Origin: an uncultured Clostridia bacterium
GTDB lineage: Bacteria > Bacillota > Clostridia > TANB77 > CAG-508
Reading direction: 5' to 3'
Assembly: GCA_934184665.1 (NCBI GenBank)
Contig: CAKPSX010000004.1
Span: 728-64,727, forward strand
DNA: 64,000 bases
Shown: positions 10,867 to 60,723 of the stretch, piece by piece
How positions within the stretch are numbered: the stretch's first letter is position 1
Layout of the letters: the number at the start of each line of letters is the position of its first letter
Made by a program: the position numbers and the translations under genes
Notes under the pieces: generated by a model
Databases searched by the model: none
The model's input: the letters and a program-made list of their open reading frames with translations, nothing else
Told to the model about the DNA's origin: nothing

Positions 10867-11276
10867 ATAAAAGACTGCAATAGTACTGCAATAGATTTTT
10901 ATTTTTTACTAAAGAAAAAGATGTGCAATAAAAAATTCTTGAATTAAAGAATAATATTGTTTTAAGTAAAAAATAAAAGTACAGATTTTGTGGATTTTGG
11001 GGCTCCGCTTTTTCTGTACTTTTATGTAATGGGTGGGCAAGCATCAAGTAGGGATACGGGCGAATGCTTGCCCATGTAATATTTATAAAATTATTTTATC
11101 TTATTAAAATTCTAAAGTCAATACATTTTGCAATTATTTTTGGGTGCAAATGAAATTCTTTTATGAATGCAACTAAAAATCACAAATAGGTGCAAAAAAC
11201 ATTCGTCCAAAAGTGCAAAAATAAAAAATTTATAAACGAAAAATCTACATAATTTAAATTATAAAAAGTAAAAGCG

Positions 11277-12399
11277 TTATTTACTTTTGCTACTTAAAGT
11301 AATCTCAAAAGTTCTCGAAATATGCCCACGACTAACATTAATAGAAATTGTATCACCAGGTTTCTTAGAATAAACATAAGCTCTAAGATCAAGCATAGTA
11401 TTAATAGAATTTCCATCAACAGAAGTAATAACATCACCAGTTCTAATACCACTAGAAATAGCAGGGCTATCATCACTGATATCAACAATATAAATTCCAG
11501 AATTAACATTTGCAGAAGATTCAAGATATGGTATAACATCTTTATCATAAGCAAGAATTCCAAGATATGCTTCATCAAAACCATTTTGAGTTACAAAACT
11601 TTCAATTACAGTTTTAATAACATTTATAGGCACAGCAAAGCCAATACCTTCAGCAGAAGTGATTTTAACAGTATTGATACCAATAACTTCTCCATTAGGC
11701 AAAATTAACGGACCTCCACTATTACCGAGGATTAATAGAAGCATCTGTCTGAATCAAATTGGTCATATAACATACATTATTATCTTCTTCTAATTTTATA
11801 GTTCTGTTTGTTGCACTTATAATTCCAGAAGTAACAGTTCTTTTAAATTCAAAACCAATTGGATTTCCAATAGCGTAAACAGTTTCACCAGACCTTAATT
11901 TAGAAGAATCACCAATAGTTGCATATGCAAGATTATCTGCTTTGATTTTTGTAATAGATAAATCTAAATCATCATCACACCAAACGACAGAGCCCTCATA
12001 GGTATAACCATTTTCGAGTGTAACATAACATGTGCTTAATGCTTCTCCTGTAACATGGCAATTACTCAAAATATAGCCATTACTTGAAACAATAATGCCA
12101 GTACCAAGTCCTAGGTCATCAACAAGACTGCTTGAAAAAATAGAACTTGAATGTGATTTTAAACGAGAAATACCAACAACACTTTGAGAAACATTTTCAA
12201 CCATGTCAGCAATTGAAGTGCTGTTTTCCGTAGAGTTATCCACAGTTTGTTCACTAACTGTGGAACTAATACGCTTAATATCATATTCTGGAGTAATGTC
12301 TATTTTGTTGTAAGCTGTGTATAAATAATATGAAAGAGCCAGTAAACCAATAACAACTATAACTATTATAAAAAAATTTCGTATCTTCTTTTTATTCAT
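11277..12399 (-). pseudogene. htrA: HtrA/DegP-family serine protease (TM anchor, trypsin-like domain, PDZ) interrupted by a 1-nt frameshift
   Basis: ORF 11722..12399 ends ...IQTDASINPR*. ORF 11277..11744 continues in another frame with ...GNSGGPLILPNGEVIGI and a PDZ domain. Minus-strand reading is aat cct C ggt aat agt gga ggt; the extra base is at about 11727. Confidence 0.8.
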
Positions 12400-12480
12400 A
12401 AATAATTCAATCCTTTCTGTTTTATTATGAGAAAAAATACTACCAAATAATCAACAAACATACTAAAATATCAGCAAAAT

Positions 12481-12509
12481 TTGCAAAATTTGTAATAAAA
12501 TGTTATACT
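12481..12509 (+). promoter_or_regulatory. Promoter of the NRPS gene
   Basis: TTGCAA, a 17-nt spacer, then TATACT with an upstream TGt. Confidence 0.5.
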
Positions 12510-12544
12510 ATAAGAGGATAAATAAAATAAAAGGGTGAAAATAA

Positions 12545-15500
12545 ATGTTGAAAAAGATGGAGAATCTAACTAGCTCACAAAAATCTATATGGAGCGTAGA
12601 ACAGTATTTCAAAGGAAGCAGTATTAATAATATTTGTGGAACTGCTGTATTCAAAGAAGAAATCGATTTTAAAAAATTAGAAGAAGCAATAGAAATAGTA
12701 TGTAGTAAACATGATATTTTTAAAATCAGATTTAAAATCAAAGATGGAGAAATCATGCAAATGGTTTCAGATTCTAATGAATGTAACATTGAAATAATTG
12801 ATGTTAAAGATGTAGATGAACTTAAGAAGAAAAAAGAAGAGCTTACCCAAAAACCCTTCAAAATAGAAGAAAATTTATTATTCAAATTTTATATCTTTAA
12901 GTTTCCAAATGGTAAAGGGGCATTTATGCCTAGCATGCACCATTTAATTTCAGACGCTTGGACTATAGCACTTATTTATAATGAAATTATCGAAACATAT
13001 TCCATATTAAAACAAAACAAAGAAATTAAGGAGGAGGCTGTATATTCATATACAGACTATATTAAATCTGAACAAGAATACCAAGAAAGTGAAAAATTTA
13101 ATAAAGACAAACAATATTGGAAAGAAAAATTTGTTACAATACCAGATGTTGCAATAATACCAGGTAGTAAAAAGGAAAATGTTGATAGAACTAATCCAAA
13201 AGGAGAAAGAAATCAATATGAGATAGAAAAAGAGAATGTAGAAAAAATAAAGGAATATTGTAAAAAATATAAAATTTCATTATACAATTTCTTTATGGCT
13301 GTTTATGCAATATATATTGGGGAAATAACGAATTTAGATGAATTTGTTATTGGAACACCAATTTTAAATAGAACTAATTTCAAAGAAAAACACACTGCAG
13401 GTATGTTTATAAATATGGCACCATTCAAAATAAATATTGATGAGGAATTAGATTTTAAGGAATTTATAAAAAATATAGCAAGAGATTCACTAGGAATGTT
13501 AAAACATCAAAAATATTCATATCAATATTTATTAGAAGAACTAAGAAAACAAGATAGAAATATTCCAAGCTTGTATAATATTTTGCTGTCATATCAAATA
13601 ACAAATACAAAGCAAAATAATGGAAATGTAGAATATGAAACAGATTGGATATTTAATGGATGTTGTGCAGAAGATATAGATATACAAATATTTGATTTAA
13701 ATGATACAGGTGCGTTAAATATTTCATATGATTACAAAACAAGTATTTATAATCAAAAAGATATAGAAAAAATGCATACCAGAATATTAAATATTATGTT
13801 ACAAGTAATTCAAAAAGATGATATTAAATTAAAAGAAATAGAAGTAATTACGCCACAGGAAAAAGAAAAGGTTTTAGTTGAGTTTAATAAAACAGATTTA
13901 CAATATGATAAAAATAAACCATTTGCAAAATATTTTGAGGAACAAGCTCAAAATACGCCAGATGGAATAGCGATAGTATTTGAAAATAATAAAATCACAT
14001 ATAAGGAATTAAATGAAAAGGCAAATAGTCTAGCACATGTATTAAGAGATAATGGAGTAACAAATAATACTATAATAGGAATATTAGAAAAGCGTTCACC
14101 AGAAGTGCTTATATCAATGCTTGCAGTATTAAAAGCAGGAGGATGCTATATTCCTATAGCTACAGATTATCCAAATGAGAGAATAGAATATATGTTGCGA
14201 GACAGTGATGCAAGTATTTTACTTACAAGTGAAGGAAATAGAATTCATACAAATAAAAAGATTATAAATATAAAGGATGAGAAAATATACCAAGAAAATA
14301 AGGAAAATATAGAAAACATATCTCAACCAGATGATTTATCATATTTTATATATACATCAGGATCAACTGGAACTCCCAAAGGAGTCATGTTAAAACAACG
14401 AAATTTAAGCAATTTTTATAATTCAATGAAAACAATGATAGAATTTTTAAGGGACAGAGAGAACTATAAAATGCTTTCTATTACAACAATATCTTTTGAT
14501 ATATTTGCATTTGAGACACTAATGTCATTAACGAGAGGACTAACTGTATATTTAACAAATGAAAATGAACAAAAAATGACAAGTGAAATAGAAAGAATTA
14601 TAAAAGAAAATAAAATAGAAATTATGCAAACAACACCATCTGTAATGAAATTTCATATAGAAAATATAAAAAATAAAAGCAGTTTAAAAAGTCTGAAATA
14701 TATTATGCTAGCAGGTGAACCATTACCAAAGCAACTTGTAGAAAGAATAAAGGGTATTATTCCAAAAGTAACAATATATAATGGGTATGGACCATCTGAA
14801 ACTACTATATTTTCAGCCATTGCAGATGTTACTAATCAGACAACAATTACTATAGGAAAGCCTATAAATAATACACAAATATATATATTAAATAAAAATA
14901 AAAAATTAATGCCACAAGGAATGATTGGAGAAATTTATATATCTGGAGATGGCGTAGGAAAAGGATATATGAATAAAGAAGAACAGACAAAAGTAAACTT
15001 CATTCAGGATATTTTTGATAGTTCAAAAATAATGTACAAAGTAGGAGATTTAGGTGCATTTAATGAAAATGGAGAAATAACTTGTTGTGGAAGAATTGAT
15101 AATCAAGTAAAAATAAGAGGATTAAGAATTGAACTTGCGGAAATAGAAAGGCAAATGCAATCAATTTATAATATAGCGGATTGTGTTGTTGTAAAAAAAG
15201 TTGTAAATGATAAAGACACATTATGTGCATATTATGTGGAAAACGGACCTGTAAATAAATCTGTTTTACAAACAATATTACATTCAAAATTACCAGAATA
15301 TATGATACCACAATATTTTGTAAAACTTGATAAAATACCACATACACCAAATGGAAAAATTGATAGACTAGAATTACCAGAACCTAACTTGGAAGAAAGT
15401 GAAAACGAGTTTGTAAAACCTAGAAACGAAATAGACAGAAAATTAGCAAGAAGAATTAAAAAGATGTTGCAAATAGACAAAGTTAGCATAAATGATACAT

Positions 15501-26562: not shown

Positions 26563-27576
26563 ATGAGTAAGAAACAACGGGAGAAGAAGTACAACACACT
26601 AATGTTGAGAACCTTGGCAGAGGAACTTAACAAGATTCGTCGCCCTATCGGGGAGGATAAAGCCCTGGTACCGATCAAAGTGGAGGACATTTATCTTCTT
26701 GAAAAGGCAATCTATATGATGCCCAAAAAGGAGCGAGAAGCACTGGAAAAAATGTACGGACTCATCGAGGGAACTATTCCCAAGGGAAAGTTATGGAGAA
26801 AGGGGCACAACAATGAAAAAGACATTGCCCTGAGAAATCAGGCAGTCAAGACATATGATGCAATGAGAAGTCTCTTGAGCTTAGACATGCTCTATGTCTA
26901 TGACAAGTGCTTCCAAGCACTGGTTGCAAGCATTGTGACCAAAATGGACAAGCCAGATAACATGTCTGACATGGAGGCCATAAAGTACCTCTTGTTGTTC
27001 TTCGTTTTCATGATGGGAGGTCCCAACATGATTTATGAGGAAGAGGCTCGTTCTACTGGTTGGAATGAGGAGAACATCGGCAACTACGACCTGTATACAC
27101 TGCTTCAGGCTACATGGGAGAGCTCAATTAGCTTGATGCCTGAGAAGAACATCAACATGAACCTCTTAAAAGAGGTAATCGGGATGTTTGACATCTCTGA
27201 TATCGTTTCTATGAAGCGATATGTTGGCTTACCTATTGGCAAGCAGAATATCAGTGTATCATGGATTGAGCTGCAAACATTTGCACAGATTCGAAAGTTC
27301 AAGGAAAAACTCTTCTCTCAGGGAGAGTGGGTGACAACTGAAAAGTTGATCTACACTCAACGCACTACTAAGATGAACCTTACACCATTCTCTGATGCGA
27401 TGAAGTATCTGAGAAACAGTGATACTGAAAAGTATCGAGAGGAAGAAAGAACTACGGAGATCGAACTGACTACCGGCAAAAAAGAGCTGGTATTCTATAA
27501 AATCGGTGCCTTGAAGTTCACTGACCCATATGAAATGCTTTCTCTGTACCTTTGCAGAAGAGCACTGAAAGCCTAA
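26563..27576 (+). CDS. Hypothetical protein, 337 aa, compositionally foreign
   Basis: Long ORF with an AAAGGAAG RBS. GC is about 40-50% per line against about 25% in neighbouring genes. Codon preference is AAG/GAG/CTG/ATC/TTC/AAC. The only weak similarity I see is a sigma-70 region-4/YlxM-like stretch, MPKKEREALEKMYGL...RNQAVKTYDAMRSL. Confidence 0.6.
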   Translation: MSKKQREKKYNTLMLRTLAEELNKIRRPIGEDKALVPIKVEDIYLLEKAIYMMPKKEREALEKMYGLIEGTIPKGKLWRKGHNNEKDIALRNQAVKTYDAMRSLLSLDMLYVYDKCFQALVASIVTKMDKPDNMSDMEAIKYLLLFFVFMMGGPNMIYEEEARSTGWNEENIGNYDLYTLLQATWESSISLMPEKNINMNLLKEVIGMFDISDIVSMKRYVGLPIGKQNISVSWIELQTFAQIRKFKEKLFSQGEWVTTEKLIYTQRTTKMNLTPFSDAMKYLRNSDTEKYREEERTTEIELTTGKKELVFYKIGALKFTDPYEMLSLYLCRRALKA

Positions 27577-27584
27577 CTCATTTA

Positions 27585-27613
27585 CCCCAGCAAGTAATTC
27601 TTGCTGGGGTTTT
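27585..27613 (+). terminator. GC-rich Rho-independent terminator
   Basis: ccccagcaag-taatt-cttgctgggg followed by tttt. Confidence 0.8.
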
Positions 27614-42161: not shown

Positions 42162-42422
42162 TGTCAAAAGCCGAAGAGAAAGCAAAGTAAATATATCACA
42201 AAAGTATTACAGAGAAGATGACAAAGCTGAGAGTCATTTATACAAGATATATTGAAATTTCACTTTAGAGGTCTTACTTTGAATAATAGTAGAAGTAAGC
42301 GGTTGAACCGTTAAAACTATAATGAGGTTAATAAAATGCTTGGAAAAAGCATAATTAATAAAATTAGGTGGTACCACGAAAGAGCCATTCGTCCTAAGTG
42401 CAGGATGATTGGCTCTTTTTAC
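42162..42422 (+). promoter_or_regulatory. T-box leader (Phe specifier) controlling pheS-pheT
   Basis: AGAGA/GCTGAGAG stem-I elements. Candidate specifier UUC-A at about 42259. Conserved T-box AAATTAGGTGGTACCACG at 42361. Terminator aagagcca...tggctcttttt at 42380-42420. Confidence 0.85.
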
Positions 42423-42446: not shown

Positions 42447-43496
42447 ATGCAAGAAAAGATTGAAGAAATCAAAAAAAGTGCAGAAGAAAGAATACAAGAA
42501 ATAAAAAATTCACAAGAATTACAAGAACTTAAAGTAAAATTCTTAGGCAAAAAAAGTGAATTATCAGGTTTACTAAAAGGATTAGGAAATTTGACAGCTG
42601 AAGAAAGACCAAAAGTAGGAGCATTAGTAAATAAAGCTAGAACAGAAATTGAAGAAAAAATAGCAATTGCAGAAGAGGCAATAAGAGAAAATATGTTAGC
42701 AGAACAAATAGAAAATGAAACAATAGATATAACATTACCAGGAACTAAAATAAAAAGAGGAAGCAAACACCCAGTAAACAGAGTAATTGAAGAAATTGAA
42801 GATTTATTTGTATCAATGGGATATGATGTAGTTGCAGGTCCAGAGTTAGAAACAGACGAATTCTGCTTTGAAAGATTAAACCTTCCAAAAGGCCATCCAG
42901 CAAGAGATATGCAAGATAGTTTTTATATAACAAAAGAACATTTACTAAGAACGCAAACATCAGCAGTTCAAGCAAGAACAATGCTAGCAAACACAGAAAA
43001 AACACCAATAAGAATGATATGTGCAGGAAAAACATATAGAAGAGAAGATGATGCAACACATTCACATCAATTTGGTCAAGTAGAGGGGCTAGTAATAGAT
43101 AAAAAAGAAAGAAATGTATCATTAGCAGATTTAAAAGGCACACTTGAAATATTTGTGAAAAAACTAACAGGAAAAAATAGTGAATTAAGATTTAGACCAA
43201 GTTACTTCCCATTTACAGAACCATCATATGAAGTTGATGTTAGTTGTTTTAAATGCGGTGGAAAAGGCTGTAACCTTTGTAAACAAACAGGCTGGATAGA
43301 AATACTAGGAGCAGGAATTGTGCATCCACATGTATTAGAAATGAATGGATATAATCCAGAAGAATATGGAGGCTTTGCATTTGGAACAGGACTAGAAAGA
43401 TTAGCAATGTTTAAATATGCAATACCAGATATGAGATATTTGTATGCAAATGATATTAGATTTTTAACACAATTCGATAGAAAAGATGAAGAATAA
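42447..43496 (+). CDS. pheS: Phenylalanine--tRNA ligase alpha subunit
   Basis: [23 protein letters not shown] and GAGIVHP motifs. Confidence 0.95.
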
Positions 43497-43522: not shown

Positions 43523-45886
43523 ATGAAGCTAAGTAAAAACTTTGTAAAAGACTATGTTGATATAGATGTTGATGTAAAACAATTAGCTGAAGATATGACA
43601 AGAGTAGGAAATGAATATGATTCGGCTGAAAAATTAATAAATGCAACAAAACTAGTAATAGGAGAAATAATTGAATGTGTAGATCACCCAGATTCAGACC
43701 ATTTACATCTTTGTAAAGTAAATATTGGAACAGAAATATTAAATATTGTATGTGGTGCACCAAATGCAAGAAAAGGTTTAAAAGTTATAGTTGCACAAGA
43801 TGGAGCAAAATTGCCAGAAACAACAATAAAAAGAGGTGTTATAAGAGGTCAAGAATCAAATGGTATGTTATGTTCACTAGAAGAGATTGGAGTGGAAAAT
43901 AAATTCTTAACTCAAAAAGATAAAGAAGGAATTGCAGAATTAGGAGAAGATGCAATCCCAGGAGAAGATCCTATTAAATATCTTGGACTTGATGATGAAG
44001 TTATAGATTTTGAATTAACAGCAAATAGAGGAGATTTATTAAGTATATTAGGAATGGCATATGAAATAGGTGCAATTTATGATAAACCAGTAAAAACTGT
44101 TGATATAAGCCATAAAGAAGATGGAGAAGATATAAATAAAACATTTACAGCAGAAGTAAAAACAGATAATTGTAAAAAGTTATTAATAAAAAGAGTAGAA
44201 AACCTAACAATAAAAGAAAGTCCAGCATTTATAAAAAATAGATTAATGGCATCTGGAATAAGACCAATAAATAATGTTGTAGATATAAGTAATTATGTAA
44301 TGCTAGAACTAGGTCAACCATTACACTTCTATGATGCAGATAGACTTGGAAATAAGCTAGTAGTTAGAATGGCAGAAGATGGAGAAAAACTAACAACACT
44401 TGATAACATAGAAAGAACACTAAGTTCAGATGATATAGTTATAGCAGATAGTACACATGGTGTAGGACTTGCAGGAGTTATGGGTGGACTTGAAACAGAG
44501 GTAGAAAATGATACAAAGAACATTATAATAGAATCAGCAATATTTGATTCTGTAAAAGTAAGACTAACTGCTAAGAAAATACTTAGAAGTGAAGCAAGTA
44601 ATAGATTTGAAAAAGGAATTGATCCAGCTAGAACAACAATGGCAATAGAAAGAGCATGTAAACTATTAGAACAATATGCAGATGGAAAAGTAATAACAGG
44701 AACAGTTGAGTACGACAAAACAAACAGCCAAGAAAAAAATATTGAAATAGAATTTAAGAACATAAATGAAGTATTAGGAACAATAATTCCAAATGAAGAA
44801 ATATTAAATGTATTTAGAAAACTAGGTTTTGAATACACAGTAAATGGAGAAAAAGTAAAAGTAAAAGTTCCAACAAGAAGATTAGATATATCAATAAAAG
44901 AAGACTTAATAGAAGAAGTTAGTCGTATATATGGAGTTGATAATATTCAAGGGAAATTACCAGTAGTTCCAATGAGAAAAGGTAGCTATGATAAAACTCA
45001 AAGAGAAATAAGAAATAAAATGATAGCATTAGGCTTAAATGAAACATTATCATATGTATTAATAAATGACAAAGAAGTAAAACAATATACTTTAGATGAT
45101 TTTGAACCTTTAAAATTATTAGATCCAATAACAGAAGACAGAAATACTTTAAGATATAGTATGATACCATCACTATACAAAATTTATGAATACAATAATG
45201 CACGTAACCAAAAAGATATATCTATATTTGAAATAGGAAAAGGCTTTCACAAAAAAGGCGAAGAATATGGAGAAGATACAAAGTTATGTGCTGTAATGAC
45301 AGGTAAATATTCACTAGGATTAAATAATACAAAAAATGTTGATTTCTATACAATAAAAGGAATTGCAGAAGAAATGCTTGATTATCTTGGGTATGCTGGA
45401 AGATATAGTTTTATGAAAAAAGAATTTCCTAAAGAAATGCATCCAGGACAAAGTGCTTATATAAATGTAAATGGTACAGATATTGGTTTAATTGGAAAAG
45501 TTCATCCAAGTATTACAAATGAGGATGTTTATGTATTAGAAATTAATTTAGATGAATTGCTACAAAAAAAGGTTGGAAAGATGAAATATAAAGAAATATC
45601 AAAATTTCCGGGAATAAAAAAAGATTTAGCATTTGTAGTTGATAAAAATGTAATATCAAAAGATATTGAAAAAGCAATAAAATCAGCAGGAGGAAGTTTA
45701 CTTACAAATATTGAAGTATTTGATGTATATACAGGAATCAATATTGGAATAGATAAAAAATCAATTGCATATTCATTAACATTTGAAGATATGAAAAAAA
45801 CATTAACAGATGATGAAATAAATAATATAATAAACAAAATTATTGAAACAGTTTCAAAAAAATGTGGTGCAGAAATAAGAAAATAG
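43523..45886 (+). CDS. pheT: Phenylalanine--tRNA ligase beta subunit
   Basis: 787 aa with tRNA-binding, B3/4, B5 and FDX-ACB domain order. It lies immediately after pheS. Confidence 0.95.
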   Translation: MKLSKNFVKDYVDIDVDVKQLAEDMTRVGNEYDSAEKLINATKLVIGEIIECVDHPDSDHLHLCKVNIGTEILNIVCGAPNARKGLKVIVAQDGAKLPETTIKRGVIRGQESNGMLCSLEEIGVENKFLTQKDKEGIAELGEDAIPGEDPIKYLGLDDEVIDFELTANRGDLLSILGMAYEIGAIYDKPVKTVDISHKEDGEDINKTFTAEVKTDNCKKLLIKRVENLTIKESPAFIKNRLMASGIRPINNVVDISNYVMLELGQPLHFYDADRLGNKLVVRMAEDGEKLTTLDNIERTLSSDDIVIADSTHGVGLAGVMGGLETEVENDTKNIIIESAIFDSVKVRLTAKKILRSEASNRFEKGIDPARTTMAIERACKLLEQYADGKVITGTVEYDKTNSQEKNIEIEFKNINEVLGTIIPNEEILNVFRKLGFEYTVNGEKVKVKVPTRRLDISIKEDLIEEVSRIYGVDNIQGKLPVVPMRKGSYDKTQREIRNKMIALGLNETLSYVLINDKEVKQYTLDDFEPLKLLDPITEDRNTLRYSMIPSLYKIYEYNNARNQKDISIFEIGKGFHKKGEEYGEDTKLCAVMTGKYSLGLNNTKNVDFYTIKGIAEEMLDYLGYAGRYSFMKKEFPKEMHPGQSAYINVNGTDIGLIGKVHPSITNEDVYVLEINLDELLQKKVGKMKYKEISKFPGIKKDLAFVVDKNVISKDIEKAIKSAGGSLLTNIEVFDVYTGINIGIDKKSIAYSLTFEDMKKTLTDDEINNIINKIIETVSKKCGAEIRK

Positions 45887-45988: not shown

Positions 45989-46336
45989 ATGGAAAAGAAA
46001 GTAGAAATAAGCATGTTATGGCAAATCTACGGAAAAATGCTTACAGAAAAACAAAGCGAATATATCGATTACTACTACAACAAAGACTTATCTTTATCAG
46101 AAATTGCAGAAAACAATGAGATAACAAGACAAGCCGTGAGAGATATCATCAAAAAGGGGGAAAGAAAACTTTTCGAGTTTGAAGAAAAGCTATTGTTTAT
46201 GAAAAAGACAATTAATCAAGAAAAACAAATCCAACATATACTTTTCAATTTAAATAAAATACAAAAAGACTCGTCAGACAAAAAAGTTGAAAGCATATTA
46301 GAAGAAGTGAGAAAAGAATTAAATTGTTTAGTATAA
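45989..46336 (+). CDS. ylxM: YlxM/p13-like putative HTH protein (UPF0122)
   Basis: LTEKQSEYIDYYYNKDLSLSEIAENNEITRQAVRDIIKK. It occupies the conserved position upstream of ffh. Confidence 0.8.
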   Translation: MEKKVEISMLWQIYGKMLTEKQSEYIDYYYNKDLSLSEIAENNEITRQAVRDIIKKGERKLFEFEEKLLFMKKTINQEKQIQHILFNLNKIQKDSSDKKVESILEEVRKELNCLV

Positions 46337-60203: not shown

Positions 60204-60239
60204 AAAAAATAAAACCCACCCAGTAAAAAACTGGGTGGG
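60204..60239 (-). terminator. GC-rich Rho-independent terminator oriented for the minus-strand orphan gene
   Basis: The minus strand reads cccacccag-ttttttа-ctgggtggg followed by ttttatttttt, i.e. stem 60215-60223 / 60231-60239. The plus strand has no T-run after the stem. Confidence 0.75.
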
Positions 60240-60248
60240 AGAAAGGAC

Positions 60249-60572
60249 TCATCTGATGATGAGGAATGGATCCCTAGCAGGAACCTTATGCACGACTCTC
60301 ATACCTTTTGTAAAGGTAGATTTAGTGAACCGTACTGTACCGTCCTTTGTGAGGACGATTTCCTGTTCACCAACTTCAGGGAATGCATGATGCTTCATTC
60401 TGAAGCTTCTGAAGCTTTGGCTGAACTGATGGATAACACAGCAGCCGAGTTGGAGGTATCTCTCCTCGATGAAGTCAGTGAAACTTTTCAACTCCTGAGA
60501 GGTGAAGCGCCTTCTGGGCCACAGGTACTGGCAGAACAATTCTGCTACTTCGTTGTTGAAACGTAATGCCAT
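60249..60572 (-). CDS. Hypothetical protein, 107 aa, compositionally foreign
   Basis: GC is about 40-50% per line against about 25% in the flanks, with a C/G-ending codon preference (TTC, AAC, CTG, CTC, ATC). It has an RBS (AAAGGA), its own promoter and its own terminator on the minus strand. I recognise no family. Confidence 0.55.
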   Translation of the reverse strand: MALRFNNEVAELFCQYLWPRRRFTSQELKSFTDFIEERYLQLGCCVIHQFSQSFRSFRMKHHAFPEVGEQEIVLTKDGTVRFTKSTFTKGMRVVHKVPARDPFLIIR

Positions 60573-60656
60573 AAGGTGTACATCCTTTCTGTTTTTTCTT
60601 CAATATTATTGAAGAAATTGTAATAATATGTTATGCACAAAGCATACCATACAATT

Positions 60657-60685
60657 ATTATACAATAATTGACATAAATAGTCAA
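60657..60685 (-). promoter_or_regulatory. Consensus-like promoter of the 107-aa orphan gene
   Basis: On the minus strand: TTGACT, a 17-nt spacer, then TATAAT. Confidence 0.55.
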
Positions 60686-60694
60686 TTAAAATTG

Positions 60695-60723
60695 TTGCAA
60701 ATTATTGATGAAAGTGATATAAT
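60695..60723 (+). promoter_or_regulatory. Promoter of mfd
   Basis: TTGCAA, a 17-nt spacer, then TATAAT. It is divergent from, and back-to-back with, the orphan-gene promoter. Confidence 0.5.

Follow-up and report, generated by a model that had tools for sequence, protein, structure and literature searches.

Variable islets of orphan genes between core genes are a known kind of locus, as are hot spots of defense and immunity genes. At anti-CRISPR-type loci, diverse and unrelated small open reading frames (ORFs) stand behind one conserved promoter, and regulation through rare codons is exemplified by the TTA codons and the bldA tRNA of Streptomyces. Here we describe a locus that resembles each of these in part. 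It lies in a 64,000-nucleotide stretch of DNA from an uncultured Clostridia bacterium (GenBank contig CAKPSX010000004.1, positions 728 to 64,727), which we refer to throughout as the window, and it contains a gene for a 107-amino-acid (107-aa) protein encoded on the minus strand between topB and mfd. On balance, we favor the view that this gene is a resident, new-family payload of a conserved expression unit, that its product is a conflict-type binder and that its high G+C content at third codon positions (GC3) is maintained. We hold the descriptive part of this account, namely the gene, its family, its position, the conserved unit and the selection pattern, with considerable confidence.

The topB-mfd site shares several properties with hypervariable islets. 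In close species, unrelated small genes or none at all lie between the same two core genes; the payloads are fast-evolving and unannotated and carry no mobility machinery; and a mosaic of divergence around the site suggests exchange through homologous flanks. It differs in that the promoter and a stem-loop next to the ribosome binding site (RBS) are kept while only the coding sequence changes, in that the payloads keep GC3-rich codon usage inside a genome with a GC3 of 0.14, and in that no known defense, toxin or immunity domain was found at the site. The interchangeable, unrelated small proteins behind one promoter in related genomes would be analogous to those of anti-CRISPR-type loci, but the topB-mfd unit is chromosomal and sits between housekeeping genes, with no aca-like regulator and no viral homologs. 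Likewise, a small gene class that uses host-rare codons (32-39% vs. 6.7%) may be likened to the bldA/TTA case, although here the bias runs through all synonymous families and in the opposite compositional direction. What is unusual relative to known islets is that coding sequences are swapped behind a conserved promoter and leader and that the rare-codon composition is stable. A full-text literature search for GC-rich orphan genes in AT-rich genomes returned no description of the family or of the locus architecture.

The 107-aa gene and its expression signals

The coding sequence (CDS) occupies 60249..60572 on the minus strand and comprises 107 codons from an ATG start; the product begins MALRFNNEVAELFCQYLWPRRRF, just as it was first read. 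Its GC content is 0.460 and its GC3 0.546, which lies ~14 standard deviations above the mean of the 42 other window ORFs of at least 120 aa (0.143 ± 0.029; maximum, 0.204). The sole other GC3 outlier in the window is a 337-aa ORF at 26563-27576 (GC3, 0.541). Codons with a relative synonymous codon usage (RSCU) of <0.3 in the host account for 32% of codons in the 107-aa gene, 39% in the 337-aa gene and 6.7% in host genes, and the codon picks in the 107-aa gene include TTC in 11 of 12 cases and ATC in five of five. The RSCU values of the two genes correlate with r = 0.46, vs. 0.18 and 0.23 for each against the host. The window itself is low in GC (~0.24-0.36 per kb), with almost all genes on the plus strand. 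GC was back at the host level ~100-200 nt beyond the CDS ends, the shift affected third codon positions only and ended at the CDS boundaries, and the adjoining ends of tex, pflB, topB and mfd showed no GC spill-over. The original prediction of a strongly atypical gene was thus borne out quantitatively by both GC3 and rare codons, and its likeness to the 337-aa gene by the nearly identical GC3 values.

Two natural alleles, L001 (Logan ERR11477478) and L087 (ERZ773116), are likewise flanked by topB and mfd and encode proteins 89% and 93% identical to the window protein, respectively. Compared to L001, 20 of the 35 substitutions fell at codon position 3 of the minus frame, with 0.048 nonsynonymous (dN) and 0.479 synonymous (dS) substitutions per site and a dN/dS of 0.10; the comparison to L087 gave a dN of 0.032, a dS of 0.567 and a dN/dS of 0.056. 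For a more distant pair of orthologs, L072 and L076, omega was 0.17. Judged by this codon-position-3 bias and by the dN/dS ratios in the minus frame, the 107-aa ORF is a real protein-coding gene under purifying selection. A 92-aa ORF on the plus strand was rejected as a true gene: its ATG is lost and a stop gained in L001, and the substitutions misfit its frame. The database gene call for the close allele L001 (P0001, 436-900) is 154 aa long because its start is placed upstream and a TGA stop is read as Trp, apparently because a gene-calling model of the code-4 type was applied to a contig that is short and AT-rich; long intact ORFs in the window indicate the standard code.

All parts of a complete single-gene unit, as originally proposed, were located on the minus strand. 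A sigma-70-type promoter, TTGACT-17-TATAAT, lies at 60685..60657 and matches the consensus at 11 of 12 positions. Its -35 element is held in a perfect inverted repeat, TTGAC-TATTTAT-GTCAA (60669-60685), the outer halves of which are largely kept in relatives and which could be an operator. The 5' leader of ~78 nt (60573..60650, its start inferred from the position of the -10 element) is 97.5% identical to those of the two other alleles, compared to 89% for the CDS, and contains a 10-bp stem-loop, TTCTTCAATAATATTGAAGAA (60616-60596; predicted hairpin energy, -8.1 kcal/mol; z, -2.8), that ends 7 nt upstream of the RBS. The RBS, read from the sequence as AAAGGA (60588..60583), stands 10 nt ahead of the ATG. 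An intrinsic terminator at 60239..60205 consists of a 10-bp stem with 7 GC pairs (60239..60215) followed by TTTTATTTTT, and its T-run is found on the minus strand only. A candidate mfd promoter on the plus strand (60695..60723; TTGCAA-17-TATAAT with an extended -10 TG; 10 of 12 matches) stands back-to-back with that of the 107-aa gene, the two -35 elements being ~10 bp apart. The flanks held no meaningful repeats, only low-complexity chance ones, and neither a tRNA or tmRNA nor an integrase, transposase or other mobility ORF adjoined the gene; the ORF list and the tRNA and repeat searches therefore agree with the initial reading that no mobility genes or repeats flank it. The beginning of the 107-aa CDS is overlapped by a short out-of-frame ORF on the minus strand (60545-60585; MYTLWHYVSTTK), which starts within the RBS region, at GGATG.

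Distribution and payloads of the topB-mfd site

We compared the site across a TopB-anchored sample of 80 loci from GTDB species representatives, all of them metagenome-assembled genomes of uncultured gut Clostridia. Their GC content is ~26-33%, and the closest to the window has 90% TopB identity. The topB-mfd spacer is extremely variable, with 16-30 nt in L014, L018, L033, L036, L055 and L074, 51-105 nt in a few others, ~380-600 nt with a GC-rich core in many and ~5 kb in some; the site is empty, with topB and mfd 16-105 nt apart, in about ten of the 80 loci. By a hidden Markov model search, 13 of the 80 loci, as well as the window, have a family member on the minus strand immediately 3' of topB, and metagenomic members (L083, L084, L085, L092, L093 and L094) adjoin mfd, topB or both. 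The position of the family is fixed: nearly all members occupy the topB/mfd site in the same orientation. No relatives of the 107-aa gene were found in plasmid or phage records by blastn or in viral contigs. An apparent occurrence in Bacteroidota, on a contig with a SusC-like gene (L082, 1-5878), was discarded since the contig is chimeric. It joins ~800 nt of AT-rich Clostridia sequence, holding a family member and a Clostridia-type mfd fragment 73% identical to that of the window, to a SusC/TonB-receptor region of 43-46% GC, with GC stepping from 0.27 to 0.44 near position 800.

The unit at this site faces the opposite way to topB and mfd, and its promoter is far better conserved than the protein behind it. 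Between the window and L002, the promoter differs by 2 mismatches in 29 nt, while the proteins share only 36% identity. The promoter 29-mer, for which the consensus of the topB-mfd unit is TTGACTnTTTAnnTnAATTnTnGTATAAT, recurs with 0-6 mismatches upstream of family genes (L001, L002, L005, L020, L063, L087 and L092) and also before unrelated Cys-rich genes (L012, L017, L034 and L066). Most of 17 related leaders contain a 4-10 bp stem-loop immediately 5' of the RBS, different in sequence each time and present whatever the payload, including in leaders before unrelated coding sequences. Such a stem-loop may act at the mRNA level, through stabilization or through control of access to the RBS. These alignments indicate that the sigma-70 promoter and leader are conserved among species, that the coding sequence which follows can be exchanged, and that some species lack the unit altogether.

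The replacement payloads are varied. A Cys-rich orphan family of ~56-89 aa (~56-66 aa in L012, L017, L034 and L066; CxxC...C...CPY; e.g., MFKPSTGNDIFCQQCKGSCVRATSAETQKAAREMFGITPNNCIENLEGKSRCPYKR) occupies the same site and strand at 7 of the 80 loci (L004, L012, L017, L034, L041, L043 and L066; GC3, 0.32-0.47), and it was never found together with the 107-aa family in the 80 loci. L061 carries a two-gene payload behind the same promoter. L048, L058, L059 and L080 hold a GC-rich orphan family on the minus strand, with proteins of ~210-256 aa and a GC content of 0.36-0.45; for one member, a weak Peptidase_C39_2 match below the cut-off was obtained (E = 0.0019). Other topB-mfd spacers hold genes of native composition, encoding SDR, thioesterase or LemA/DUF3137 proteins.

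GC-rich orphan ORFs (GC3, 0.38-0.60) were also seen upstream of topB, at L040 2817-3212, L042 2997-3392, L051 2954-3352, L052 3183-3641, L007 1434-1850 and L008 2129-2587. In this clade, GC-rich orphans at fixed positions thus seem to recur beyond the topB-mfd site.

Descent and codon usage

Across pairs of loci, family identity follows TopB identity (Spearman 0.45, the pairs being non-independent). L072 and L076, with 95% TopB identity, share 88% family identity; at 91-92% TopB identity, L063 shares 49-51% with L072 and L076; L062 and L057 (TopB, 91%) share 46%; and the window and L002 (TopB, 90%) share 36%. For L072 vs. L076, the family dS (0.42) is near that of topB (0.57). For the window vs. 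L002, topB has a dN of 0.055 and a dS of 0.80, and the family has a dN of 0.65 and a saturated dS. Because family identity tracks TopB identity and the L072/L076 dS values are close, the 107-aa gene would be a long-standing resident of the locus that diverges with its hosts but does so very fast.

The GC3 of the family persists over this divergence. Seven lineages of the window's subgroup keep a GC3 of 0.40-0.58, although topB dS between the window and L002 has already reached 0.80, and a second subgroup, at 0.25-0.33, still has about twice the host value. Some 70% of host synonymous differences are exchanges between G/C (S) and A/T (W). Under a neutral two-state model, ~31% of the GC3 excess would be kept per lineage, and an ancestral GC3 of >1, which is impossible, would be needed. 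Polarized changes in the 107-aa gene numbered 10 S>W vs. 4 W>S, although the counts are few.

The 337-aa gene, an orphan on the plus strand between tex and pflB (26563..27576; GC3, 0.541), provided a second test. Its end had been placed at 27613, which takes in the terminator; the CDS itself ends at 27576. It has its own promoter-like site (TGTGATATAAT), leader hairpin (AAACAAGATGGCGACATTTGTCGTATCTTGTTT) and terminator. Six clusters of homologs were found, none of them named and all syntenic, with the tex-gene-pflB order seen in L088-L090; viral contigs held no relative. Four lineages separated by dS values of 1.2-1.5 all have a GC3 of 0.50-0.54, and polarized synonymous changes are balanced (S>W vs. 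W>S, 8:7 and 36:29). The flanking tex and pflB genes have dS values of 0.61 and 0.41 and a GC3 of 0.14; relative to flanking genes, the rate of evolution of the 337-aa gene is 2-3 times higher at synonymous and 4-9 times higher at nonsynonymous sites. The tex-pflB spacer is a variable site as well, since in L088 an extra 688-aa gene of native composition (11063-13129, minus strand), weakly matching the RNA polymerase alpha C-terminal domain, separates the 337-aa homolog from pflB.

Taken together, persistence across lineages, the 337-aa gene test and the simple neutral-decay model suggest that the GC3-rich usage of host-rare codons is a maintained property of the coding sequence; it does not appear to be the relic of a recent transfer. 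It might be kept in place by selection, acting either on the rate of translation or on the survival of mRNA against an AU-cleaving background. A recombination hot spot with GC-biased gene conversion is disfavored as the cause, since a shift that is confined to third positions and ends at the CDS boundaries favors codon- or mRNA-level selection. It is conceivable, though we would not wager on it, that the clade carries a distinct class of endemic, fast-evolving orphans whose rare-codon usage is actively maintained, pointing to an undescribed codon- or mRNA-level regime. This class would include the 107-aa, 337-aa, Cys-rich and ~250-aa payloads and others, some of them interchangeable in the promoter-plus-stem-loop unit, and the regime might take the form of translation gated by tRNA supply or of transcripts built to survive an AU-directed RNase. 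The 107-aa and 337-aa proteins might then be related components, linked by their C-terminal motif.

If the favored account is correct, it defines, along with the locus, a new protein family that has a confidently predicted fold and is without relatives in the curated libraries. A strong compositional anomaly that standard methods score as recent transfer would then be a lasting condition in which a resident gene is maintained, which calls for caution in composition-based transfer detection. The locus would also offer a tractable case for asking what holds synonymous sites off mutational equilibrium in a 27% GC genome, and the conserved promoter and leader would serve as a search handle for more fast-evolving small proteins in uncultured gut Clostridia.

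Protein family, candidate function and alternative explanations

When 1.84 billion representative proteins were searched exhaustively with HMMER, 12 relatives of the 107-aa protein were found, and a profile search of 5.8 billion proteins returned 10, adding tandem two-domain forms of ~190 aa (P0009, P0013, P0014 and P0015). The relatives found are all unnamed and lack Pfam domains. For the 107-aa protein, there was no match in Pfam, NCBIfam, PADLOC or PHROGs, the PDB sequence search was negative, and PADLOC 2.0 reported no defense family at E ≤ 1 for either the 107-aa or the 337-aa gene, the other payloads of the site being negative too. The first impression that the protein has no known motif thus held across the family libraries searched and the PDB, and no mundane annotated family emerged for either gene, the homologs of both being without names. 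The 107-aa protein represents a new family, endemic within a single clade of uncultured gut Clostridia that have small genomes of ~27% GC.

The protein is ~12.5 kDa and basic, with a net charge of +6 by count. Conserved blocks in the family alignment (A2) comprise a hydrophobic L-W/F-P block, an F-x-x-Y/F-I helix, G-C-C-V and F-x-x-F, followed toward the C terminus by L-P-D-I-G-K-K-E-V-I and D-G-T-V-R-Y-T. A four-sequence alignment (A4) was used for the profile scan, A2 having no sufficiently conserved stretch. The Cys-Cys pair was considered as an active site and rejected: C44 is invariant in A2, yet seven orthologs of the second subgroup have GTAV or GTCV, and the pair is therefore not a catalytic motif. 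No catalytic residues are conserved in the family. AlphaFold, given a 13-sequence alignment, predicted a compact alpha/beta domain of the order a1-a2-b1-a3-b2-b3-b4 (pLDDT, 80.9; pTM, 0.71), compared to a pLDDT of 53 in a single-sequence run. A BFVD structure search gave no match to the model.

Because no catalytic residues are conserved and tandem two-copy fusions exist, we envisage a small, basic cytoplasmic protein that acts by binding a partner, probably as a dimer. Purifying selection over the short term, extreme divergence over the long term, and gain, loss and replacement at one site suggest a role in a fast-turnover, conflict-type accessory class, with immunity-, antitoxin-, defense- or anti-defense-like function. 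Drawn as it is from evolutionary pattern, we offer assignment to this class of conflict-type accessory binders as a tentative proposal.

The 107-aa and 337-aa proteins share a C-terminal motif, GEQEIVLTKDGTVRFT in the former and GKKELVFYKIGALKFT in the latter (residues 305-323), of the form G-K/E-K/Q-E-h-h-h...G-x-h-+-F-T, which lies in the most conserved C-terminal segment of each. A BLASTP comparison of the motif gave an E value of 0.018 (single comparison), and hhalign gave P = 0.009 with a probability of 4.5%. A regular expression for the motif, written after seeing both sequences, was run over 775,000 residues of six-frame ORFs and had no match beyond the family and the 337-aa gene. The two genes may thus be distantly related, the motif being a lead and not proof. 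The original suggestion of a common origin was therefore upheld in part, and weakly: the shared codon regime (r = 0.46) and the short motif speak for it, and the hhalign probability against it. A shared operator of the two GC-rich genes was also considered and rejected, as their promoters differ.

The gene had initially been called foreign, and its composition does raise the possibility of a recent horizontal acquisition, in which a single-gene cassette from a donor of ~45% GC would have been inserted between topB and mfd and not yet have drifted. The contrast in GC3 (0.546 vs. 0.143) fits such an event, as do codon preferences (CTG, AAG, GAG, ATC, TTC, AGA and few NCG) that resemble those of mid-GC gut Firmicutes, the patchy presence among relatives, some with empty sites, and the greater divergence of the gene than of its flanks. 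It is at odds with this that no homolog was found outside the clade in the 1.84 billion representatives, the 5.8 billion-protein profile search or the viral contigs, and that relatives lie nearly all at mfd/topB, with position, strand and promoter the same in many species. Family identity also tracks TopB identity, GC3 stays high across saturated divergence, repeats, integrases and tRNAs are missing nearby, and the AT-rich promoter and leader are common to relatives and other payloads. We consider recent transfer unlikely, and "foreign" in the sense of a recent insertion was not supported. Several observations nevertheless weigh against our own account of a long-resident, conflict-type payload. 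For the window vs. L002, dN is 12-fold higher in the family than in topB, and divergence among the three close alleles is a mosaic, with a dS of 0.04 at the mfd 5' end, 0.48-0.57 in the 107-aa gene and 0.27 at the topB 3' end. This probably reflects recombination breakpoints around the gene together with a higher mutational flux of GC-rich sequence under AT-biased mutation, estimated from an equilibrium argument at ~2.2-fold; descent with the host is not fully separable from allele exchange by homologous recombination among close relatives. The persistence of GC3 would also follow from repeated import into this one site out of a GC-richer, unsampled pool, although no such donor pool was detected in any search made. 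One member, L086, has no recognizable topB or mfd neighbor. The whole of the case for a conflict-type binder is evolutionary pattern and the lack of catalytic residues, PADLOC scans find nothing, and no partner gene adjoins the 107-aa gene. The last point argues against a classical two-gene toxin-antitoxin or toxin-immunity pair, and a test for a type II toxin-antitoxin or toxin-immunity pair likewise found a single gene in the unit and no Pfam or PADLOC domain.

Other explanations concern the function of the gene or its product. That the 107-aa and 337-aa genes are two co-inherited, physically interacting parts of one system, as had been suggested at the outset, would fit their maintained GC3-rich regime, their status as clade-endemic orphans at fixed positions and the common C-terminal motif; however, they lie 33 kb apart behind different promoters, the hhalign probability is merely 4.5%, and these genomes contain several other unrelated GC-rich orphans, so that shared composition does not single out this pair, and we regard a two-part system as improbable. 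Regulation of, or assistance to, mfd or topB by the gene product, or by mere transcription from its promoter, would accord with the back-to-back promoters with their -35 elements ~10 bp apart, the strict tie of the gene to the mfd/topB junction in many species and the basic character (+6) of the protein. Since many close relatives have no gene at the junction (topB-mfd, 16-105 nt) or have unrelated payloads behind the promoter, and Pfam scans found no DNA-binding domain, we give this very little credence. The structural search raised a further candidate, a bacterial analog or remote homolog of the eukaryotic BTG/Tob (APRO) family that would act as an adaptor or inhibitor of a DEDD-type exonuclease or RNA-decay factor. 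The best PDB structural match to the predicted model was mouse TIS21/BTG2 (3djn), with a Foldseek probability of 0.89, TM scores of 0.51 and 0.47 over 115 columns and secondary-structure elements in the same order; the two are similar in size. The E value of that match was 0.083 and its root mean square deviation 4.4 Å, however, and neither the window protein nor any of 13 members matched Pfam BTG (PF07742) at E ≤ 10. Moreover, hhalign of A2 against a BTG2/Tob1 alignment (A3, its sequences checked against PDB chains) gave a probability of 0.2% over 16 columns, and box A and box B are missing, leaving no sequence or profile similarity. We treat the resemblance as a borderline, fold-level lead as opposed to family membership, and a BTG/Tob-like activity as highly improbable. 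Finally, structured RNAs are a frequent cause of GC-rich islands in AT-rich genomes, and the GC-rich segment of ~390 nt might be a structured non-coding or dual coding/structural RNA with an incidental ORF: on either strand, a 401-nt region exceeds shuffled controls in folding stability (z, -5.4 and -6.7), and long ORFs are open on both strands. Much of this folding signal comes from the terminator and leader hairpin, though, the CDS alone having a z of -3.05 and the L002 ortholog CDS merely -1.14. Rfam gave no match at the gathering threshold and noise only at E ≤ 10 (best sub-threshold matches, 15-21 bits vs. cut-offs of 44-65), the substitutions follow a coding pattern in the minus frame (dN/dS, 0.06-0.10), and the protein family alignment yields a confident predicted fold. 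The RNA reading is thus already largely refuted, and we assign it next to no weight.

A few further features were recorded. The L086 member mentioned above (contig positions 1-2497) is preceded by an orphan ORF of 325 aa and by a protein of 122-137 aa that carries a long acidic tail of D, E and Y, and it may be on a mobile element. In the window, a 115-aa ORF at 45989-46336 (plus strand) has an intermediate GC3 (0.31) and an unusually low GC2 (0.17), and a T-box leader (111 bits; E = 1e-23) lies at 42165-42399 (plus strand), upstream of the ORFs at 42447-43496 and 43523-45886.

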